Below are positions 15,328-24,980 of a stretch of 26,894 nucleotides of DNA, one piece after another. The notes below the pieces were generated by a model. That model was not told where the DNA came from. It was given only the letters and a program-made list of their open reading frames with translations, and ran no database searches. Both the position numbers and the translations under genes were made by a program. Position 1 is the stretch's first letter, and each line of letters opens with the position of its first letter. The stretch is from assembly GCA_937873545.1 (NCBI GenBank), contig CALMWI010000155.1, forward strand, positions 1 through 26,894. The letters run 5' to 3'. This stretch comes from an uncultured bacterium. GTDB lineage: Bacteria; UBA4055.

Positions 15328-15360
15328 TGAATGGCTGAAATCAACAGGAAAGGATGTAAT

Positions 15361-16530
15361 TTGAAGATAATTTTCGTTTTAATATTTGTTCTGGGAATAA
15401 CCTGTTTCGGCAGCGATTTTATGAAATTGAGCGAATTCGCAGCAGTTAGAACTGAAACCAAACAGGATTCGAGTATATGGGTCGCAAACCCCGTTCCGGA
15501 TAAAAGTATGGAACCTGATGATGTTCTTGAAATTGACATTTCTTACTCGTTCAATTGGGAACCTGATTCAATAAACTTCGATTCAATTACCGTAGCTGTG
15601 ACCGGAGATTCCATTAATTCCCCGGTAGATAAAGCTTTTTTTAAGCCTTTAAATAATATGCTGAGAATAGAAACAAAACCTGAAATATACGGTCACGCCT
15701 ATATTGAATATACAGCCCATACGAGTATCGGGTCAGCTACGGATAAATTCCTATTAAGGGTTGAAAAGCGTCCTAACTACTCATGGAACCCGTTCAGCAC
15801 CCAATACGATATTATACCGGAGAACTGTTTTGGCAGAGGCGACTCAATAGAATGGAAAGCCGCGTCTGTTTTTGATCTGGGAAATATTGATTACCGGCTT
15901 GACTGTATAGAATTCGGTTACGGGTTTGGAGGAAGAACAGACTGGAAAATAGTTCTTTTCGACGGACTTCCTACAGACAGTCTGGTGAACGGATTGAGCG
16001 GTTCGAAGGATTTCGATGGAGGGTATTCCAGCTTTATAGAAAACCTGAACGGAATAATTTCCGGTCAGGTTGCAGTAGTATTTTCAACATCGGAAAATTT
16101 TATGGCAATGGAGACTTCCGGCAGCAGCGATCTTACCTGGATTTACTCGGCTTCTTCAGGATGGGAACATCCGGAGGATATATCTCCGGATTATCCAGGT
16201 TCCTGGTATATAAGACTGTATGTGCTGGATCCTACGGGCATCGAGCAGGTTTTTACAAATGAGAAAAGCCCGACCTTAATGCAGAATTATCCGAATCCTT
16301 TCAATAATGAGACTGTAATTTCGTGGATGATGCCTTATGCGGCTCAGACCGAGCTTAATATTTTTAATTCAAAAGGACAGCTGGTAAAGAATCTTGTCAA
16401 TGAGGCCGAAAATAAAGGAAAGCATTCCGCGGTTTTCAATGCGGACGGAATGCAGACAGGTATCTATTTTTATCAGCTTAAGATAAACGGGAAAATTGAA
16501 AATTCCGCAAAGATGCTGTATCTGAAATAA
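15361..16530 (+). CDS. Secreted protein with an Ig/cadherin-like domain and a T9SS type A-like C-terminal sorting domain
   Basis: Likely TTG start at 15361 after AAGGA, giving the signal peptide MKIIFVLIFVLGITCFG (the ORF track gives 15331). Ig-like module NPVPD...SF...YG.A.I...A...D.F.L.V. CTD QNYPNPFN..T.I...IFNSKGQLVK.L...GIYFYQL...KMLYLK. Confidence 0.85.
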   Translation: MKIIFVLIFVLGITCFGSDFMKLSEFAAVRTETKQDSSIWVANPVPDKSMEPDDVLEIDISYSFNWEPDSINFDSITVAVTGDSINSPVDKAFFKPLNNMLRIETKPEIYGHAYIEYTAHTSIGSATDKFLLRVEKRPNYSWNPFSTQYDIIPENCFGRGDSIEWKAASVFDLGNIDYRLDCIEFGYGFGGRTDWKIVLFDGLPTDSLVNGLSGSKDFDGGYSSFIENLNGIISGQVAVVFSTSENFMAMETSGSSDLTWIYSASSGWEHPEDISPDYPGSWYIRLYVLDPTGIEQVFTNEKSPTLMQNYPNPFNNETVISWMMPYAAQTELNIFNSKGQLVKNLVNEAENKGKHSAVFNADGMQTGIYFYQLKINGKIENSAKMLYLK

Positions 16531-16540
16531 GGGGTCGATT

Positions 16541-18202
16541 ATGAAAAAGATTATCTCAATTTTAGCCATAGCTGCTGCCGGTTTAGTTTTTGCCTCAGAA
16601 TTTTATATGCCTCCTAAGGAGAATAAGTTTTCCGATAGAGCGGAGAATTTTATAAAATCCAAATCTGAAGAGACACGGGTATTTGTCATCTATTTTACCG
16701 ACAAGAATATATTCGATAAATCCTCTTTCGACAAAGTTAAAAAAGACATGCGTCTTGATGAGAAAACTCTGAAACGAAGGGCAAAAACTTTCAAAAGAGA
16801 AAGTGACCTTGTACTGTTCTCTGATCTGCCGGTCAATCAGGAATATATCGACAAACTCGGGCTTGAAAAAGAAAGGGCAAGATCGAAATGGTTCAATTTT
16901 ATATCTGCAGAAATAACTTCAGAAAAAGCTGTTGAAATATCTAGAATGAATTTTGTCAGATATATTGATATTCTGCCAAAAGTAAAAAAGGATATGAGCA
17001 TAAAAAGCGAACAACCGTCAGAATCTTCAAAAGACGCTTTTTATAACCTGACTTATAATCAGGTGAACCAGATAAATATTCCTGCAGTCCATGCACTCGG
17101 ATACAAGGGTCAGGGAGCCAGGCTGATGATTGTGGATACGGGTTTTAATAAGGATCATCAGGTATTCGACAGCCTCACTGTCGTTGATGAGTACGATTTT
17201 ATATATGGAGATGACGAAACTGCTGACGATATACATGATTCGACAGGTCAGGAAGGACACGGAACAGCCTGCTGGTCGATTGCGGCGGGATACAAGCCGG
17301 GAACCTTCGTCGGACCTGCTTTCAGATCGGATTTTCTGCTCGCTAAGACCGAAAATTACGCAAGCGAAGGGACTTATGAGGAAGATTACATGGTCGCCGC
17401 TCTCGAATGGGGGGAGGCTCTCGGTGCTGATGTAGCTTCGATATCTTTGGGATATTCCGAGTTTGATGATCCTGCAGATAACTATACTTATGAGGACATG
17501 AACGGGATCACAACAATATGTACTCTCGGCGCGAAACAGGCGGCATATCTGGGAATGGTCGTCTGTAATTCGATGGGTAATTCAGGAACAAGCGCGTGGC
17601 ATTATCTGTCGGCTCCGGCCGACGCGGACAGCATTTTATCATGCGGATCCGTCGATCTTAACGGAGTGATAGCGGCTTCATCATCTTATGGACCTTCTTA
17701 TGATGGCAGGATAAAACCGGAAGTCGTTGCACGCGGCGTCAGCGATTATTACGCGGTATCGAGCACAAATACAACTTATGCGACAGGATCAGGAACTTCG
17801 TTCGCGACGCCTCTAGTTGCAGGAGTAGCATGTATGCTTTTATCAGCCCACCCTGACTGGACGAACATGGATGTCCGCGAAGCTCTGATGATGACGGCCG
17901 ACCGGGCGTCGAATCCCGACAGCACAAGATACGGATGGGGTCTTATCGACGCATTAGCCGCAGTGAACTATGTTCATCTTGCCGATCCGCAGAATGTTTC
18001 CACCAGCGTTTCGGGAACGACCCTGACAGTTTCATGGAGCGCCGTTACCAATGCAAGATCATATCTTGTTTTTCACTCCGATCTGCCGTACGAAGGTTTT
18101 ACATATCTCGCCACGACAGATCAGGCGAATTATCCTGTATCAATAACAAGCTCAACCAAGAAATTCTACTATATAAAAGCATCAAATCAGGAAATGAAAT
18201 AA
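16541..18202 (+). CDS. Secreted S8 (subtilisin-like) serine peptidase with propeptide and FnIII-like C-terminal domain
   Basis: Signal peptide. Catalytic triad motifs IVDTG (Asp), HGT (His) and GTSFATP (Ser). Oxyanion-hole NSMGN, RIKPEVVARG and YGWG. C-terminal PQNV...LTVSW..V..A..Y.V. Confidence 0.93.
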   Translation: MKKIISILAIAAAGLVFASEFYMPPKENKFSDRAENFIKSKSEETRVFVIYFTDKNIFDKSSFDKVKKDMRLDEKTLKRRAKTFKRESDLVLFSDLPVNQEYIDKLGLEKERARSKWFNFISAEITSEKAVEISRMNFVRYIDILPKVKKDMSIKSEQPSESSKDAFYNLTYNQVNQINIPAVHALGYKGQGARLMIVDTGFNKDHQVFDSLTVVDEYDFIYGDDETADDIHDSTGQEGHGTACWSIAAGYKPGTFVGPAFRSDFLLAKTENYASEGTYEEDYMVAALEWGEALGADVASISLGYSEFDDPADNYTYEDMNGITTICTLGAKQAAYLGMVVCNSMGNSGTSAWHYLSAPADADSILSCGSVDLNGVIAASSSYGPSYDGRIKPEVVARGVSDYYAVSSTNTTYATGSGTSFATPLVAGVACMLLSAHPDWTNMDVREALMMTADRASNPDSTRYGWGLIDALAAVNYVHLADPQNVSTSVSGTTLTVSWSAVTNARSYLVFHSDLPYEGFTYLATTDQANYPVSITSSTKKFYYIKASNQEMK

Positions 18203-18210
18203 GGATATTT

Positions 18211-19194
18211 ATGAGAACAAAAATTGGAATAGCGGGATGCGGACATTTGGGCAAACTGCACACAAAGATGCATACGATGCTGCCGGATATTTCGGAACTT
18301 ATCGGTGTTTACGATATAAATCCGGAAGCGGTCAAAACTGCTTCAGAACTAAATAAGTGCAGAGGTTTTAATAGTCTGGAAGAACTGCTTCCGCTGGTTG
18401 ACGGGATGGTCGTTGCGGTCGCGACACAGGGACACTATGAAGTTGCAAAAAAATGTCTTCTTGCCGGAAAGCATATATTTATTGAAAAGCCTATAACCGC
18501 GACGGTTGAGCAGGGCATTGAGATCGTTCAACTGGCAAAAGAGAAAGGCCTGATCATTCAGGTCGGGCAGATCGAGAGATATAATCCGGCATTTTCACAA
18601 TTGAAGGATTTCAGTATCGAACCGAAATTCATTGAAGCTCACCGCCTGGCGCCATTCAATCCTAGGGGTGCGGATGTGTCGGTCGTGCTTGATCTGATGA
18701 TCCACGACATTGATCTAATCTTGAGTCTGATAAAGTCTGATGTGGAAAAAATTGATGCTGCCGGAGTAGCTGTCGTTACAAACACGACCGATATCGCCAA
18801 TGTCAGGATAAAGTTCAAAAACGGAGCAGTTGCGAACCTGACAGCTTCACGGATGAGCTTAAAGAAAATGAGAAAGTTCAGGATATTCCAGGAGCACAAA
18901 TATCTATCGCTCGACCTTGATACCGGAATTGCAGACATATTCTACCTTGCCGACAAAGATGCTTTGATCAATGACGGCATGGCTGTTGCCGATCTCGATT
19001 TTGTTAATAAGAAAATAATTTATTCAAAGAGGGAAAAAATCGAAGTTAATGCACTTCTCGAAGAGAACAGGGATTTTGTCGAAGCGATCTCAAAAGGAAA
19101 AAGTGTAAAAGTAACGGGCGAGGACGGATTAAAAGCTCTTCAGGTAGCCGATAAAATATTAAATGAAATTGCAAATCAATTCAAAGGCGCGTAA
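18211..19194 (+). CDS. Gfo/Idh/MocA family NAD-dependent oxidoreductase (GnnA/WlbA-like)
   Basis: Rossmann IGIAGCGHLG, HIFIEKP, VGQIERYNPA, HRLAPFNPRG.DVSVVLDLMIHDID and ANLTASR. True start is ATG 18211 (MRTKIG) after AAGGA, so the ORF-track extension to 17935 is spurious. Confidence 0.88.
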   Translation: MRTKIGIAGCGHLGKLHTKMHTMLPDISELIGVYDINPEAVKTASELNKCRGFNSLEELLPLVDGMVVAVATQGHYEVAKKCLLAGKHIFIEKPITATVEQGIEIVQLAKEKGLIIQVGQIERYNPAFSQLKDFSIEPKFIEAHRLAPFNPRGADVSVVLDLMIHDIDLILSLIKSDVEKIDAAGVAVVTNTTDIANVRIKFKNGAVANLTASRMSLKKMRKFRIFQEHKYLSLDLDTGIADIFYLADKDALINDGMAVADLDFVNKKIIYSKREKIEVNALLEENRDFVEAISKGKSVKVTGEDGLKALQVADKILNEIANQFKGA

Positions 19195-20225: not shown

Positions 20226-20468
20226 ATGGATAAAGATAAATTGGCTGTACTTGCAGTGAGTGAAAGCGGGTTCATTTTTGATCCTGTAACCGGCCATTCA
20301 TATACCGCAAATGCTACGGGACTAAAGATCCTTGAACTGCTTAAAGCAGGAAAAGAGCCTGATGAGATCAGGTCGGTTCTTCTTGACGAGTATGACTCGA
20401 CAGAAGACGAAGTCAGCGTGGATGTTAATGATTTTATTGAAAATCTCAAAAAATATTTCTTAATATAG
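20226..20468 (+). CDS. Stand-alone PqqD-family / RiPP recognition element (RRE) protein
   Basis: 80 aa. Three short strands (AVSESG, FIFDP.TG, SYTAN), then N.TG..IL.LL..G....I...L..EY......V..DV..FI..L....LI, the PqqD winged-helix pattern. Confidence 0.85.
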   Translation: MDKDKLAVLAVSESGFIFDPVTGHSYTANATGLKILELLKAGKEPDEIRSVLLDEYDSTEDEVSVDVNDFIENLKKYFLI

Positions 20469-20477
20469 GGGATTTTT

Positions 20478-21530
20478 ATGAAGCTCACCGTAGCGGTAAG
20501 CGGGATAAACACTATTGATAATCCGGGTCCCGGCGCCGGGATATGCCGGGCTTTAAAAGAAAGCGGGATGGATGTAAGGACCATAGGTCTTGCCTATGAC
20601 GCGCTTGAACCGGGAATATATTTAGACCATATAATCGATAAAAGCTATATCATGCCTTATCCTTCAGGAAGCCGTGAAGCATTTATCGAAAGAATCAAAG
20701 ACATTCATTCAAGAGAGAGTATCGATGTTATAATTTCCGCGCTTGATGCCGAACTTCCGATCTATATGGATATCGAGCCTGTTCTGAAAGATATCGGAAT
20801 TAAGATGCTGATACCTTCAAAGGAAATGTTCAGGCTTAGAGATAAGCTCAGACTCAAGGAACTGGCTGAAAAGATCGGAGTTAAAGCTCCGGAGTACATG
20901 AGCTGCACATCTCTGGCAGATCTTCATAACGCGGTGAACGAATTGGGGTTCCCGTGCATGGTGAAAGGGCCATTCTATGAAGCGTACAAAGCTAATTCAC
21001 CGGGCGAGGCGGAAGGATATTTCGGAAAGATCGCAGCAGCCTGGGGTTATCCGATCATCGTGCAGAAATTCATTCAGGGTGACGAGTACGATGTGATAGG
21101 GTGCGGAGACGGCAACGGTAACGATATAGGAGTCTTCGCCATCAGAAAAATGACGATCACCAAGCTCGGTAAAGTATGGAACGCCGTCAGCATCAGGAAC
21201 GAAAAGCTTATCGAAGCTACAAAAAGGGTAGTAAAAGGGCTTTCGTGGCGCGGCGGATTTGAGTTCGAAGTGCTTCTTGAGGACAAGACCCAGGAAATAT
21301 ATGTACTTGAAATAAATCCGAGGTTTCCTGCATGGGTGTATTTTCCGGCAGGCTGCGGAATAAATCTGCCTGCGCGAATGGTTCAGCTTCTTACCGGGCA
21401 GGACTACGACACGCATTCCGATTATAAGAGCGGCAAGCTGATGATAAGATACACCAATGAACTTGTAAAAGATATATCCGACTTCGAACAGATCAGCACA
21501 TTCGGGGAGACATCGGAAAAAGGAGAATAG
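20478..21530 (+). CDS. ATP-grasp carboxylate-amine ligase (single-domain, CarB-like)
   Basis: Pre-grasp domain, DKLRLKELAEKIGV..P, GFPCMVKG, IIVQKFIQGDEY, GGFEFE and VLEINPRF (metal-binding E-x-N). Confidence 0.9.
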   Translation: MKLTVAVSGINTIDNPGPGAGICRALKESGMDVRTIGLAYDALEPGIYLDHIIDKSYIMPYPSGSREAFIERIKDIHSRESIDVIISALDAELPIYMDIEPVLKDIGIKMLIPSKEMFRLRDKLRLKELAEKIGVKAPEYMSCTSLADLHNAVNELGFPCMVKGPFYEAYKANSPGEAEGYFGKIAAAWGYPIIVQKFIQGDEYDVIGCGDGNGNDIGVFAIRKMTITKLGKVWNAVSIRNEKLIEATKRVVKGLSWRGGFEFEVLLEDKTQEIYVLEINPRFPAWVYFPAGCGINLPARMVQLLTGQDYDTHSDYKSGKLMIRYTNELVKDISDFEQISTFGETSEKGE

Positions 21531-21533
21531 AGA

Positions 21534-22886
21534 ATGAAAAAAGAATACATAAAACCGTATATCAGAAAACAGACCGCCGGAGTGATGAACAAATTCGGCG
21601 TAAGTTACAATAAAGGTCACAGGGAAGAGATCGAAGGTTTTCATATCGGTGATTTTACCGAAAAATTCGGATCGCCCGTATTTGTTTTAAGCGAAAAAGT
21701 AATAAGGGAAAGATACAGAAAGATCTATTCATATTTTTCCAGCAAATATCCGAAGGCAAAAATGAGCTGGTCGTATAAAACGAATTACCTCGATGCCGTA
21801 TGTTCCGTGCTTCATCAGGAGGGCGAGACGGCGGAAGTGGTTTCAGACTTTGAATATCAGAAAGCGAGAAGGCTGGGCGTACCGGGCAAGAAGATCATTT
21901 ATAACGGACCTTACAAACCGCTTGAATCGCTTATTGTAGCATTTAAAGAAGGCGCGATGGTCAATCTCGATAATTTCGACGAGATTATCAAAGCGGAAGA
22001 GGCGGCGAAAAAACTCGATATTAAAGCATCTGTCGGCATCAGGGTCAACATGGACACGGGTGTTTATCCGCAGTGGTCGAGATTCGGATTCAATATCGAG
22101 AACAACAACGCATTCAACGCGGTGAAAAGGATCCAGCACAGCGAATATCTGCATCTTGAAGGTATCCATTGTCATATCGGGACTTTCATGATGGAGCCTA
22201 GCGCCTATAAAGAAGCGGTTAAGAAAATTGTTCAGCTGATGCGCAGGATCGAGAAAGAATTTGAAATATCAATTTCGTACCTGGATTTTGGCGGCGGTTT
22301 TCCGTCAAAGAACATACTTAAAGGAACCTATCTGCCGCCTGAAGTAGCCATACAGCCGGTGGAAAATTTTATTGACGCGATCACAGACACTCTTTTAGAA
22401 GAGCTTGAACCGAAAGAATATCCCGAAGTTTATCTTGAAACAGGCAGGGCGATCGTTGACGAGGCCGGGTGGCTTATAACCACCGTTGATGCCGTAAAAA
22501 GACTTCCCGACGGAACGAAAAGTTATATAATCGACGCCGGCGTAAACCTGTTATACACATCAGCCTGGTACAATTATCATGTCGAGATAGACAGAGAAAT
22601 TCACGGAGCTTATGAGAACAGCATTATTTACGGGCCTTTATGCATGAACATCGATGTAGTGGTCGAAAGCGCGTTCTTACCGCCTCTTCCTAAAGGAACG
22701 AGGCTGATACTTTCCCCGATGGGCGCATATAATATGACCCAGTGGATGCAGTTCATCCGCTACCGTCCGGCCGTAGTTATGATATTGGAGGACGGTACTG
22801 TCGAGCAGATAAGAAGGCCTGAAACATTACAGGATATAGTCGGACCGGAAAGCGTTCCGGAGAAATTAAAGAGATTTCAATTTTAA
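21534..22886 (+). CDS. PLP-dependent fold-type III decarboxylase (LysA/DAPDC-like) with an N-terminal extension
   Basis: FGSPVFV, SYKTN (PLP lysine), EVVS..E, YNGP.K, SRFG, HCHIGT, LDFGGGF, ETGRAIV, YGPLCMNIDV and GAYN. About 30 extra residues precede the barrel. SD AGGAG 8 nt before the ATG. lysA is not assigned because the context suggests a different substrate. Confidence 0.88.
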   Translation: MKKEYIKPYIRKQTAGVMNKFGVSYNKGHREEIEGFHIGDFTEKFGSPVFVLSEKVIRERYRKIYSYFSSKYPKAKMSWSYKTNYLDAVCSVLHQEGETAEVVSDFEYQKARRLGVPGKKIIYNGPYKPLESLIVAFKEGAMVNLDNFDEIIKAEEAAKKLDIKASVGIRVNMDTGVYPQWSRFGFNIENNNAFNAVKRIQHSEYLHLEGIHCHIGTFMMEPSAYKEAVKKIVQLMRRIEKEFEISISYLDFGGGFPSKNILKGTYLPPEVAIQPVENFIDAITDTLLEELEPKEYPEVYLETGRAIVDEAGWLITTVDAVKRLPDGTKSYIIDAGVNLLYTSAWYNYHVEIDREIHGAYENSIIYGPLCMNIDVVVESAFLPPLPKGTRLILSPMGAYNMTQWMQFIRYRPAVVMILEDGTVEQIRRPETLQDIVGPESVPEKLKRFQF

Positions 22887-22898
22887 GGATAAAAGCGC

Positions 22899-24980
22899 AT
22901 GAGTTCAGGCAGGGTAAAAGAATATTATAAAGACACGACAGAAGAATTGTTTTTCGCTTACTCGAATCTTTTCTTTATTCAGAACAGGACCGTCGGAGTA
23001 CTTCTGTTCCTCTCAACGCTGTTCAACCGAAACATCGCCGTTCTCGGGCTGCTTTCTCTCATTATCGCATTGCTCTTCGCAAGGTTCATCGGAGTTAAAA
23101 GAAATGATCCGGTAAATAAACTATTTACCTACAATGCCCTTCTTACCGGATTTGCCGTCGGATTCATTTTTAAGATCACCACGCTCTCGATTCTGCTAAC
23201 TTTAGGCATGAGCATTCTGACAGTCCTGATCACTTATACATTAAGTTCAGCCCTGTATTTATATTTCAGGCTGCCCGTTTTGAACATACCGTTCACAATA
23301 TCGGCCATGATAATATATCTAGCATCGGCTAAGTACAGCAATCTTATTGTTGATTCATTCTACAAACAGGAATATTTCAATATTGAAGCACTGCCGGCTT
23401 TTATTCAGGGACTTTTCCGGGCTGTCGGAATACTGATATTCATGCCTTATGATATTATCGGCATTATTCTGCTGATAGCGATCCTGCTTTATTCACGGAT
23501 CACCTTTTTTACGGCTGTCCTGTCCTATTACGCGGGAATATATTTCCTAGCTGTATTAAAAGGCAGCGTTCCTCTCGCGTTCCAGGAAGTATCATCATTC
23601 AACTTCATACTGGTGGGAGTGAGTCTCGGCGGAATGTTTCTAATCCCTTCAAAAAGAACATACCTGCTCACATTATCAGCCGTTCTCGCGTCGGTTTTTA
23701 TAATAGACGCCACATCGGTCTTCTGGGTCTCGTTCGGAATACCGGTGTTCACACTGCCGTTCAACCTTACGGTTCTGTTATACATTTATGTACTCGGCAG
23801 CGTCAAATATGTGATGATGAATCAGACCCATCTCGAACAGCCTGAAAAATCGCTTATCGATCATCTCAACTATAAAAACAGGTTCGACTGGTCAACGCCT
23901 TCGATAAACCTTCCTTTTATGGGAAAATGGACCGTATATCAGCCTTTTGACGGCGAATGGACGCACAAAGGCGTATGGAAATATGCTTATGATTTCACGA
24001 TAGAAGATAAAGGAAAAACATTCAAGAACGAAGGACAGCAGAAAGAAGATTATTTCTGCTACGGAAAGCCGGTTGTGTCGCCCGTTGACGGGACTGTAGT
24101 TGATGTTTACGACGAAGCTGATGACAACGATATCGGTACGGTTGATAAAGTGAATAACTGGGGGAATTATATTATAATTTACTTTAACCCCGGGTATTAT
24201 GTTGAATTGTCGCATCTTAAAAAAGGTTCGATCAAGGTTAAAAAGAACGATCAGGTATCAAAAGGGCAATTGCTTTCAGAATGCGGAAATTCAGGTTATT
24301 CGCCAGAACCCCACCTTCATGTTCAGCTGCAGTATTCCCATCTGATAGGATCGGCGGGAATAGAGTTTGCGTTCAACAGCTTCAAAGCGAACGATCTTGA
24401 TCTTGATATTAAATATCTTAAAAAGAATGATTCCGTTACAGCTCTGTCATCATCAAAAACACTCACAAGAAAACTCCAGTTCATTCTTGATGAAGAGTTC
24501 ATATATAAAGTTTTCAATGATGATATTCAGACCGGCGAAATTGCGGTTACCGTGAAGATGGAAACCGACGGCACATATTATTTCTGCGACGGGAAAGAAA
24601 ATAAGCTTTATTTCGGGAACGACAGGGACAGGTTCGTGTATTTTAAATATGACGGGATCTATAATTCCGAGCTCAGATATTTCTTTCTGGCTCTGCCGTC
24701 CGTTCCTCTGTCAGATGACGAACTGATAGAATGGAATGAATTCATTCCCGATAATGTTTTCAGGATATCAAAGCTCCCTCTTATAATAAAATCCTTCAAT
24801 CACAAATTGAACAAGATCTGCGGATTCTATATCAGGAATGATAAAAATACCGTAGCCGGCAAAATAATTCAGAACGGCCGCGTGGCTGCCCAGACCAAAG
24901 CTGTCATTTGCGATAATAAGGGAATTAAAGAGATTTCATTGATTTTCAACAAAAAAACAATCAGATTAGAGAAAATATGA
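22899..24980 (+). CDS. Urea-transporter (UT)-fold membrane protein fused to an M23 metallopeptidase and an unknown C-terminal domain
   Basis: Residues 1-300: two inverted 5-TM repeats with UT signatures YNALL/FNFIL and LPVLNIPF/IPVFTLPF. Residues about 335-480: M23 fold (H356...D365, PVVSPVDGTVV, GNYIII, ELSHLKKGSI.VK..D.V.KGQ....GNSG.S..PHLH with H472/H474). About 190-aa beta-rich tail. Confidence 0.85.
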   Translation: MSSGRVKEYYKDTTEELFFAYSNLFFIQNRTVGVLLFLSTLFNRNIAVLGLLSLIIALLFARFIGVKRNDPVNKLFTYNALLTGFAVGFIFKITTLSILLTLGMSILTVLITYTLSSALYLYFRLPVLNIPFTISAMIIYLASAKYSNLIVDSFYKQEYFNIEALPAFIQGLFRAVGILIFMPYDIIGIILLIAILLYSRITFFTAVLSYYAGIYFLAVLKGSVPLAFQEVSSFNFILVGVSLGGMFLIPSKRTYLLTLSAVLASVFIIDATSVFWVSFGIPVFTLPFNLTVLLYIYVLGSVKYVMMNQTHLEQPEKSLIDHLNYKNRFDWSTPSINLPFMGKWTVYQPFDGEWTHKGVWKYAYDFTIEDKGKTFKNEGQQKEDYFCYGKPVVSPVDGTVVDVYDEADDNDIGTVDKVNNWGNYIIIYFNPGYYVELSHLKKGSIKVKKNDQVSKGQLLSECGNSGYSPEPHLHVQLQYSHLIGSAGIEFAFNSFKANDLDLDIKYLKKNDSVTALSSSKTLTRKLQFILDEEFIYKVFNDDIQTGEIAVTVKMETDGTYYFCDGKENKLYFGNDRDRFVYFKYDGIYNSELRYFFLALPSVPLSDDELIEWNEFIPDNVFRISKLPLIIKSFNHKLNKICGFYIRNDKNTVAGKIIQNGRVAAQTKAVICDNKGIKEISLIFNKKTIRLEKI

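Follow-up and report, generated by a model that had tools for sequence, protein, structure and literature searches.

A urea transporter-type channel fused to an M23 peptidase

The window analyzed here is a contig of 26,894 nucleotides (CALMWI010000155.1, assembly GCA_937873545.1) from an uncultured bacterium of the lineage UBA4055. We focused on one of its genes, P0001, whose product joins a channel of the urea transporter (UT) type to a peptidase domain of family M23 and a C-terminal β-barrel domain; this protein and its relatives are referred to below as UT-M23. The gene is the fourth of a tight same-strand series in the window, in which it follows the genes for a PqqD-like protein, an ATP-grasp ligase and a fold-III pyridoxal phosphate (PLP) decarboxylase and precedes two genes for exported tetratricopeptide repeat (TPR) proteins (Table 1). 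Its reading frame is uninterrupted, and its ATG lies 12 nt past the stop codon of the decarboxylase gene, with a Shine-Dalgarno sequence (AAGGA) 9 to 13 nt before it.

UT and M23 were the only domains found in UT-M23 by Pfam and NCBIfam searches, which returned neither a C39 peptidase nor a transmembrane or nucleotide-binding domain of an ABC transporter. The Pfam UT family (PF03253) matched residues 21 to 298 (E value of 7e-51, 173.6 bits against a cut-off of 25), covering profile positions 8 to 290 of 292, and Peptidase_M23 (PF01551) matched residues 388 to 479 (E value of 2e-13, 50.7 bits against a cut-off of 28.7). No Pfam family matched residues 480 to 693. We then obtained an AlphaFold2 (AF2) model using 118 homologues, with a predicted local distance difference test (pLDDT) score of 93.3 and a predicted template modeling (pTM) score of 0.87. 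All conservation counts given below refer to 118 UT-M23 homologues from many phyla, unless another number is stated.

In the model, residues 1 to 302 form 6 + 6 helices arranged as two inverted halves, each made of a P helix and five transmembrane (TM) helices. When superposed with VIA-align on the solved urea transporters dvUT (3K3F), UT-B and UT-A2/A3, this domain gave Z scores of 33 to 34.5 and root mean square deviations (rmsd) of 2.6 to 3.1 Å over 304 to 314 residues, and Foldseek comparison with solved UTs gave TM-scores of 0.74 to 0.83. The superposition extends to model residue 324-331 and thus takes in the helix formed by residues 315 to 328. This C1 region also aligns with the cytoplasmic tail of human UT-A/UT-B in HMMER alignments. 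The fusion at this locus, as well as its two five-helix repeats, had been proposed in a preliminary description drawn from the sequence alone; reading frame, Pfam matches and structure model all confirm the fusion, and the 6 + 6 helices and their superposition on solved UTs bear out the repeats.

Table 1. Coordinates of UT-M23, its parts and the genes of its cassette in the window
Feature	Position	Strand	Length or residues	Basis and remarks
UT-M23-β-barrel fusion gene (P0001)	22899..24980	+	693 aa	Open reading frame and translation; Pfam UT and Peptidase_M23
UT-fold channel domain, Pa,T1a-T5a / Pb,T1b-T5b inverted repeat	22899..23804	+	1-302	AF2 helices, VIA-align, Foldseek
Basic inner loop GVKRNDPVNK (T2a-T3a)	23091..23120	+	65-74	Family mean K+R 2.1
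Basic inner loop YSR (T1b-T2b)	23490-23498	+	198-200	Family mean K+R 0.9
Basic inner loop PSKRT (T3b-T4b)	23646-23660	+	250-254	Family mean K+R 1.5
Intracellular loop and C1 helix	23805..23909	+	303-337	Helix 315-328; P315, E316 and R328 invariant
Divergent M23 (LytM-type) zinc peptidase domain	23910..24389	+	338-497	Pfam, VIA-align, HMMER
M23 catalytic codons	H356 23964-23966; D365 23991-23993; H439 24213-24215; H472 24312-24314; H474 24318-24320	+		
C-terminal antiparallel β-barrel, LolA/DUF3108/DUF4292-like fold	24390..24977	+	498-693 (about 196 aa)	AF2, VIA-align, Foldseek
PqqD-like (RRE) protein, first cassette gene	20226..20468	+		Pfam PqqD 8.9e-12; NCBIfam lasso PqqD-type below cut-offs
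ATP-grasp ligase (ATPgrasp_Ter / PylC-like)	20478..21530	+		Pfam
Fold-III PLP decarboxylase (LysA/FslC-like)	21534..22886	+		Pfam; below both NCBIfam cut-offs; conserved N-terminal tail
Exported TPR and β-rich (barrel-like) protein	24977..26389	+		Signal peptide; 4-nt overlap with the UT-M23 stop
Exported TPR protein	26380..26894, runs off the window	+		ATG at 26380 or 26392; MKKTVLLLIISLFFGLYA in the translation; TPR Pfam matches

The peptidase and β-barrel domains are predicted to face the cytoplasm

Both ends of the chain are intracellular in all solved UTs, where helix 5b leads into an intracellular loop and then the C1 helix (Huang et al. 2024, PMC11589576). UT-M23 shares this fold, and the first strand of its M23 domain begins nine residues after the C1 helix, with no hydrophobic segment between T5b and M23. 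The cytoplasmic location of both UT termini, as stated in the preliminary description, is thus supported by that structural work together with the fold identity seen with VIA-align.

To analyze the distribution of charge, we assigned inner and outer loops from the AF2 model read against the topology of dvUT and UT-B, and then counted lysine and arginine residues (K+R). Averaged over the family (n = 118), the inner side carries 9.4 K+R against 3.0 on the outer side, where the short loops have means of only 0.1 to 0.7. More K+R were found inside than outside in 115/118 proteins, and in 106/118 when the tails were excluded. The three basic loops GVKRNDPVNK, YSR and PSKRT had been described as falling on the same side as both termini, and this holds in the AF2 model, their coordinates having been checked.

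Furthermore, several homologues carry N-terminal extensions of 47 to 100 amino acids that are rich in arginine, lysine and proline and lack a signal sequence. Because such tails are not translocated, the N terminus must lie inside, and since the number of membrane crossings is even, so must the C terminus.

A further line of evidence comes from natural fusions, found among the cluster representatives that matched the soluble part of UT-M23. In P0254, P0275 and P0277 (1073 to 1085 amino acids), the C-terminal domain is followed by an arginine-rich linker with 6 to 10 K/R per 30 residues, by exactly one hydrophobic helix at about residues 702 to 733, and by two copies of a TPR module. This module is homologous to the unfused TPR protein of the cassette (BLASTP E value of 2e-23), and in two separate assemblies the gene for P0277 follows those for PqqD, ATP-grasp and the decarboxylase. 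The unfused TPR protein is assigned to the periplasm because it has a signal-like N-terminal segment in 64/69 loci. For its TPR module to be periplasmic as well, the fusion must therefore span the membrane once after the C-terminal domain, which places that domain and M23 in the cytoplasm.

Two other long relatives depart from this arrangement. In P0333 (1074 amino acids), the C-terminal domain is followed by a signal-peptide-like segment and then by TPRs and a barrel-like region ending in phenylalanine; either it is fused with the product of the fifth cassette gene or two gene calls have been merged. P0259 (1029 amino acids) has, past the C-terminal domain, several extra TM helices, TPRs and an apparent part of a second UT repeat.

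Finally, the partners encoded upstream appear to be cytosolic, a signal-like segment being present in PqqD, ATP-grasp and decarboxylase proteins at 0 to 1 of 62 to 71 loci. ATP-grasp and decarboxylase enzymes need ATP or PLP. Overall, five lines agree on a cytoplasmic M23 domain, namely the UT fold, the K+R bias, the N-terminal tails, the TPR fusions and the cytosolic upstream partners, and this placement is well supported. We thus consider it very probable that the M23 and β-barrel domains of UT-M23 face the cytoplasm, as the preliminary description had predicted for M23; of these lines, the fold, the charge bias, the tails and the fusions are those that uphold that prediction.

We also looked for genes in which the soluble part would be encoded apart from the channel, and all candidates were discarded. 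P0125, at L115, was rejected as a split gene, since one frame is broken by a single in-frame TAG and a TTG is read as a start. This TAG stands in the linker where the family has tyrosine (L115:6972-9095), so that the gene was called as a UT of 330 amino acids plus an M23 protein of 364 amino acids; read-through of the stop codon, an error in the sequence or a pseudogene could each account for it. The Lebetimonas proteins P0145 and P0146 were likewise rejected as fragments, and P0338, P0366, P0371, P0318 and P0327, whose starts fall within the linker or shortly ahead of it and which have no signal peptide, are probably truncated calls.

The M23 domain retains its candidate catalytic residues

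Residues 334 to 495 of UT-M23 superposed on LytM, lysostaphin, EnpA, ShyA and Csd3 with Z scores of 12 to 15 (VIA-align), and residues 185 to 315 of LytM (2b13) fitted model residues 334 to 494 with an rmsd of 2.7 Å. In HMMER alignments, H439 and the H472-x-H474 pair fall on the catalytic "AHL" and "PHLH" motifs of Csd1/2, DipM, ShyA and lysostaphin. Additionally, comparison by hhalign of the M23 region of the family with 17 canonical M23 domains from the same phylum confirmed the homology at 97.8%. The zinc ligands proposed in the preliminary description (H356, D365 and H472-x-H474) are present at these positions and are invariant in 118/118 homologues, as are H439, N423, C462-G-N-x-G and Q478.

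The canonical HxxxD motif is absent from UT-M23. Instead, the strand reads Y-A-Y-D365-F, with K or R at the canonical histidine position 361 and an invariant histidine five residues further upstream, giving H-x8-D. D365 coincides with D214 of LytM in the structural alignment. The long spacing, which had been called unusual, is real, but it is not unique to these proteins: the extended His-Asp spacing, a "DNxxG" loop and a "CGNSG" motif are common to a wider M23 subfamily (P0162, P0168, P0189 and P0211), which includes secreted, membrane-anchored and signal-less proteins and one haloarchaeal member. Similarly, the His-Asp spacing is long and variable in M23A enzymes (PMC4356371). Because it is shared by this subfamily and has a precedent in M23A, we regard the extended spacing as a subfamily trait and not as a sign of inactivity. 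Judged by its conserved residues, the M23 domain is apparently catalytically competent.

Two insertions, at about residues 366 to 388 and 405 to 420, distinguish the domain, which has neither a signal peptide nor a cell-wall-binding domain. C462 was considered as a marker of the compartment and discarded: it is invariant, but the secreted relatives share it. The gene context of P0162, a small signal-less M23 relative, was uninformative. In P0189, from Haloplanus litoreus, the extended-spacing M23 domain stands behind N-terminal TM helices, and since haloarchaea have no murein, the targets of this subfamily may extend beyond the cell's own wall.

The pore is conserved and differs from the urea filter

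UT pores are narrow slots for urea-sized molecules, through which peptides cannot pass. NCBIfam TIGR03441, the equivalog for the bacterial urea transporter Yut, gave UT-M23 88.6 bits, far under its cut-off of 274.6. We compared the pore at the level of residues, taking the urea-filter positions from PMC4357013 and PMC11589576 and transferring them to UT-M23 via HMMER alignments. The nearly invariant pore residues of the family are F26, Y78, N79, L82, L128, F181, F234, N235, L238, F284 and T285, so that the hydrophobic slot and both signature asparagines are retained. In contrast, the urea-recognition motif, Q(Pa)-T(5a)-T(5b)-Q(Pb) (PMC11589576), is changed at three of its four polar residues: position 23 for Q(Pa) is E, S, T, N or M, position 129 for T(5a) is N or S, and position 178 for Q(Pb) is T, I, A or V. 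Only T(5b), which is T285, is retained (111/118). L293 is also replaced by phenylalanine.

Given the pattern of residues, the pore is under selection yet unlike the canonical urea filter. Because the residues for urea recognition are largely replaced, urea is not a safe assumption for the permeant, and it is probably not the permeant of UT-M23. In agreement with this, a search of the 90%-complete genome recovered no urease alpha subunit, and ure genes never adjoined UT-M23 in the loci that we read. By analogy with all UTs, the protein is presumably trimeric. UTs are passive channels in which the direction of flow is set by the gradient (PMC11589576).

The UT domain also matched a protein annotated as "Sensor Amt protein" (PDB 6eu6), with a Z score of 11.7 over 252 residues (VIA-align). 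UT and Amt folds are known to resemble each other, and we take 6eu6 to combine a channel fold with a cytoplasmic output domain in one chain. UT-EF-hand and UT-ankyrin proteins, in which a module is attached to the C terminus of the UT, occur in protists and rotifers (PMC12998343).

A family-specific C-terminal domain with a possible LolA-like fold

Modeled alone, the C-terminal 196 residues gave a pLDDT of 91.8 and formed an antiparallel β-barrel with two short helices (AF2). The preliminary description had left this domain unassigned, which is borne out at the sequence level by the lack of any Pfam match, and had suggested a Foldseek search, which yielded a LolA-like match with an E value of about 5e-4 and a TM-score of about 0.3. 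Its best neighbors in VIA-align were open barrels of the kind that binds lipids, among them the lipovitellin/ApoB β-barrel, BDI_3050 and LolA-type proteins, with moderate Z scores of up to 9.4 (5 to 7 for the LolA entries), and the Atlas/AFDB clusters for LolA, DUF3108 and DUF4292 gave TM-scores of 0.43 to 0.58. A profile of the 118 sequences, run over proteins of 108 to 343 amino acids, recovered no stand-alone version of the domain, the only match being one 116-amino-acid fragment. We conclude from the model, with scores that are moderate, that the domain is family specific and may be described as LolA/DUF3108-like by fold.

The cassette is conserved across more than 10 phyla

UT-M23 relatives were found in 399 of 185,579 species-representative genomes and in 11 of the 16 genomes of the phylum to which the window belongs. 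The architecture of about 690 amino acids comprises at least 382 clusters at 90% identity, and 531 clusters at 50% identity (E ≤ 1e-30). Among 84 loci, UT-M23 lies beside PqqD in 62, beside the ATP-grasp gene in 67 and beside the decarboxylase gene in 71, and the order of the cassette is the same or rotated in 62 to 71 loci from more than 10 phyla. These include Delongbacteria, Cloacimonadota, Aquificota, Campylobacterota, Desulfobacterota, Calditrichota, Gemmatimonadota, Ignavibacteria, Bacteroidota, Fibrobacterota and others. Median intergenic gaps within the cassette range from -4 to 9 nt, the ATP-grasp gene having median gaps of 9 and -4 nt to its neighbors. Moreover, three genomes in which UT-M23 appeared as an "orphan" hold the ATP-grasp gene of the cassette elsewhere.

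The best NCBIfam match of the decarboxylase was FslC, with 222.6 bits, a score below the cut-offs of both FslC and LysA. Its N-terminal 25 residues or so (window positions 21534-21626), which precede the usual start of the LysA fold, follow the pattern M-K-K-x-Y-x-K-P-x-I-x-K ... G-x-M-N-K-F-G and are conserved from Aquificota to Bacteroidota (69 loci). This is the tail that, bound to the RRE, had been put forward in the preliminary description as a possible source of the product freed by M23, a proposal that gains no support from the present results.

In most phyla, the fifth gene encodes a protein of about 300 amino acids with a signal-like segment (38/44) and mostly a C-terminal aromatic residue. 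A signal peptide combined with a C-terminal aromatic residue is typical of outer-membrane barrels. In the window, the protein encoded at 24977..26389 is the positional equivalent of this barrel; homology between the two was rejected (hhalign probability of 1.2% for the 470-amino-acid TPR-barrel protein and the 300-amino-acid barrel), and we treat them as positional analogues only.

Some loci differ from this scheme. At L003:7521-12835 (Candidatus Magnetomorum) and at L004, UT-M23 lies in another neighborhood, with no PqqD, ATP-grasp or decarboxylase gene within 10 kb; upstream are genes for a hexapeptide acyltransferase (PglD_N), a 233-amino-acid protein and an AAA_5 ATPase that overlaps the UT-M23 start, and downstream is a convergent PP2C phosphatase gene. 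In the lineage with the UT-M23-TPR fusion (L125:925-10566), dioxygenase-like and EF-hand genes stand between PqqD and ATP-grasp, and a gene for an AMP-binding (adenylating) enzyme follows the fusion gene. Upstream of the cassette in the window, on the same strand, are genes for a protein with a type IX secretion system C-terminal sorting domain (15331-16530) and for an S8 subtilase (16541-18202). The open reading frame at 17935-19194, for a GFO/IDH/MocA oxidoreductase, probably starts further downstream, because as called it overlaps the subtilase gene by 268 nt.

A proposed model for enzyme-coupled passage across the envelope

Because the C terminus emerges in the cytoplasm, both soluble domains are placed at the cytoplasmic mouth of the pore and not in the periplasm; M23 would be held within a few nanometers of this inner mouth. 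Neither domain would thus act on the murein sacculus. We propose that M23 works as an amidase that faces inward, placed where a trans-envelope conduit for the export of a small molecule opens to the cytoplasm. PqqD, the ATP-grasp ligase and the decarboxylase would be cytoplasmic, UT-M23 would sit in the inner membrane, the TPR protein in the periplasm and the small barrel in the outer membrane. On a carrier or adaptor, the ligase and the decarboxylase would assemble an intermediate that is amide linked and decarboxylated, and the M23 domain would hydrolyze its amide bond where the pore begins. The product thus freed, a small molecule, would then diffuse out via the UT-type pore and onward through the TPR protein and the outer-membrane barrel. 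Trimming of conjugated amino acids is known from FslC, SbnH and BtrK. We infer the activity of M23, the nature of the permeant and the ligase/decarboxylase product as substrate, and we give the whole chain of steps an even chance of being correct. Whether the cassette goes further and forms a true trans-envelope secretion device, in which release is physically coupled to exit and a TPR adaptor passes the product to the outer-membrane barrel, is a more tentative idea, which we hold to be possible rather than probable. In that case, M23 would have its first cytoplasmic, non-murein role and a UT-family channel its first biosynthetic one.

Several observations weigh against this proposal or one of its parts. 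To our knowledge, all characterized M23 enzymes work outside the cytoplasm, and our literature search found no report of a cytoplasmic one; the closest M23 relatives outside the fusion also include outward-facing proteins, P0168 with a signal peptide and P0211 with an N-terminal TM anchor. The localization test based on split genes, i.e., on stand-alone proteins with M23 and the C-terminal domain, gave no evidence either way, its candidates being nonsense or frameshift fragments. Within M23, the low-confidence hhalign alignment set D384-Y385 against the canonical D-Y. D384 was rejected as a zinc ligand, since only 109/118 homologues have it and the relative P0194 lacks it. D365, which never varies in the family and falls at LytM D214, was therefore taken as the candidate ligand. 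As to the substrate, no small open reading frame for a precursor peptide, such as a RiPP pathway with a PqqD-type RRE would have, was conserved upstream of PqqD across the loci, and the clusters found there proved to be the C-terminal parts of genes lying upstream; precursors that are very short or encoded far away could escape this search. The UT slot would be too narrow for most amines derived from amino acids, unless it is wider in UT-M23. Finally, export is the direction that we infer, and no result sets the direction of flow.

The habits of known M23 enzymes and the outward-facing P0168 and P0211, together with the fact that the two downstream genes encode exported proteins, would fit an inverted topology, with M23 and the β-barrel in the periplasm acting on peptidoglycan or on the TPR and barrel partners and the UT domain serving only as an anchor. 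Such an arrangement conflicts with the 12-helix UT fold, which puts both termini intracellular, with a K/R bias that would be the wrong way round in 115/118 proteins, and with the long N-terminal tails without a signal sequence; moreover, the TPR fusions need one extra TM helix with an arginine-rich N-terminal flank, and no extra hydrophobic segment lies between T5b and M23. We consider it very improbable. Equally doubtful is a role in editing wall precursors, by which a cytoplasmic M23 would act on the stem peptides of UDP-MurNAc-peptide or lipid II, together with a diaminopimelate (DAP) decarboxylase-like enzyme and the ATP-grasp ligase, while the LolA-like barrel held the lipid carrier. Each enzyme type does have a counterpart related to peptidoglycan, with M23 enzymes cleaving D-Ala-mDAP or cross-bridge bonds, LysA working on the D-center of mDAP and ATP-grasp ligases adding cross-bridge residues, and the fold of the C-terminal domain is used for binding acyl chains. 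However, this would leave the UT pore, the outer-membrane barrel and PqqD unexplained, no mur or fem genes were linked to the cassette in the loci read, and because its distribution is patchy (399/185,579 species), the cassette is not a core wall function.

The passive nature of the channel bears on a different alternative, namely import and trapping: since flow through UTs follows the gradient (PMC11589576), the barrel, the TPR protein and the UT pore could admit a small amide, which the cytoplasmic M23 would hydrolyze, thereby keeping an inward gradient, with the ligase and decarboxylase processing the products. An enzyme at the inner mouth has the classic logic of metabolic trapping, and the TPR and barrel arm suits uptake as well as export. 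An ATP-consuming ligase and a PqqD-type peptide adaptor would nevertheless be more typical of biosynthesis, M23 needs peptide-like substrates of several residues, which the UT slot excludes, and no catabolic or regulatory genes were conserved beside the cassette in the loci read. Import is in our view unlikely. A rather unlikely alternative is that the UT domain acts as a sensor or gate, such that occupancy of the pore controls M23 and the β-barrel, or the module plugs the pore, and M23 processes a cytoplasmic target, e.g., the decarboxylase tail held by PqqD. The striking conservation of this tail (Y-x-K-P-x-I ... G-x-M-N-K-F-G) across phyla, the failure to find a separate precursor gene and the resemblance of the UT model to Sensor Amt 6eu6 (Z score of 11.7) are in line with this idea, and the C-terminal EF-hand or ankyrin modules of eukaryotic UTs suggest regulation there (PMC12998343). 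On the other hand, the near invariance of the pore-lining residues fits a working pore, and purely cytoplasmic processing would not need the outer-membrane barrel and the periplasmic TPR protein that have been retained. We thus favor the export conduit with an inward-facing M23 domain.

Significance and comparison with known systems

The combination of UT and M23 has been listed among domain combinations in a paper that models one example and does not take up its topology, operon or function (Cagliani et al. 2026, PMC12998343), and our literature search found no paper that combines UT, M23, PqqD and ATP-grasp. New here are the topology argument based on fusions, the charge counts over the whole family, the comparison of the pore, residue by residue, with the urea-recognition motif and the placement of M23 in a subfamily with extended His-Asp spacing. 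M23/LytM domains are usually taken as cell-wall enzymes of the exterior and UTs as urea channels; UT-M23 re-uses both together, in a six-gene operon that hundreds of species in more than 10 phyla retain and for which no function is published. If our model is true, it would add a new compartment and substrate class for M23 and a new class of permeant for the UT family; it would also offer a compact example of how passage through both membranes can be coupled to an enzyme. Automatic labels such as "urea transporter" or "murein DD-endopeptidase MepM/NlpD" are probably misleading for UT-M23 proteins of about 700 amino acids. The natural TPR fusions, for their part, provide a simple, testable map of the topology.

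With the SLC14/UT urea channels, UT-M23 shares the fold of the whole channel, the inverted repeat of a P helix and five TM helices, one signature asparagine per half, the hydrophobic slot and the intracellular C1 helix, whereas its recognition motif is altered, L293 is replaced by phenylalanine and some 390 residues are added on what would be the cytoplasmic side. Like Sensor Amt 6eu6 and the UT-EF-hand and UT-ankyrin proteins, it carries a functional domain on the cytoplasmic C terminus of a channel of the Amt/UT class; unlike in these, the module is a hydrolase plus a β-barrel and not a kinase or regulatory repeat, and the operon looks biosynthetic. The M23B enzymes LytM and lysostaphin and the M23A enzymes (LasA and β-lytic protease) have the same fold, their catalytic histidine, HxH and GN[ST]G motifs align with those of UT-M23, and the candidate His/Asp ligands are invariant, but the UT-M23 domain is predicted to be cytoplasmic, has H-x8-D in place of HxxxD, is fused to a channel and contains two insertions.

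The analogy with C39 peptidase-containing ABC exporters, drawn in the preliminary description, holds conceptually, in that a cytoplasm-facing peptidase would be linked covalently to the exit route of the product of its operon. It does not extend to the machinery: the folds are unrelated (a zinc M23 versus a cysteine C39 peptidase), a passive UT pore, which cannot pass peptides, replaces an ATP-driven ABC transporter, and there is neither a double-glycine leader nor a precursor gene. A further parallel may be seen in the carrier-tethered pathways BtrI-BtrJ-BtrK-BtrG of butirosin synthesis, LysW-LysX-LysK and FslA/FslC of rhizoferrin synthesis, where a fold-III PLP decarboxylase working alongside an ATP-grasp ligase likewise acts on a conjugated amino acid and a hydrolase releases the product. 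These pathways differ from the cassette, which has no acyl carrier protein, LysW-type carrier or NRPS-independent siderophore (NIS) synthetase and instead pairs a PqqD/RRE-type adaptor with an M23 hydrolase fused to a channel.

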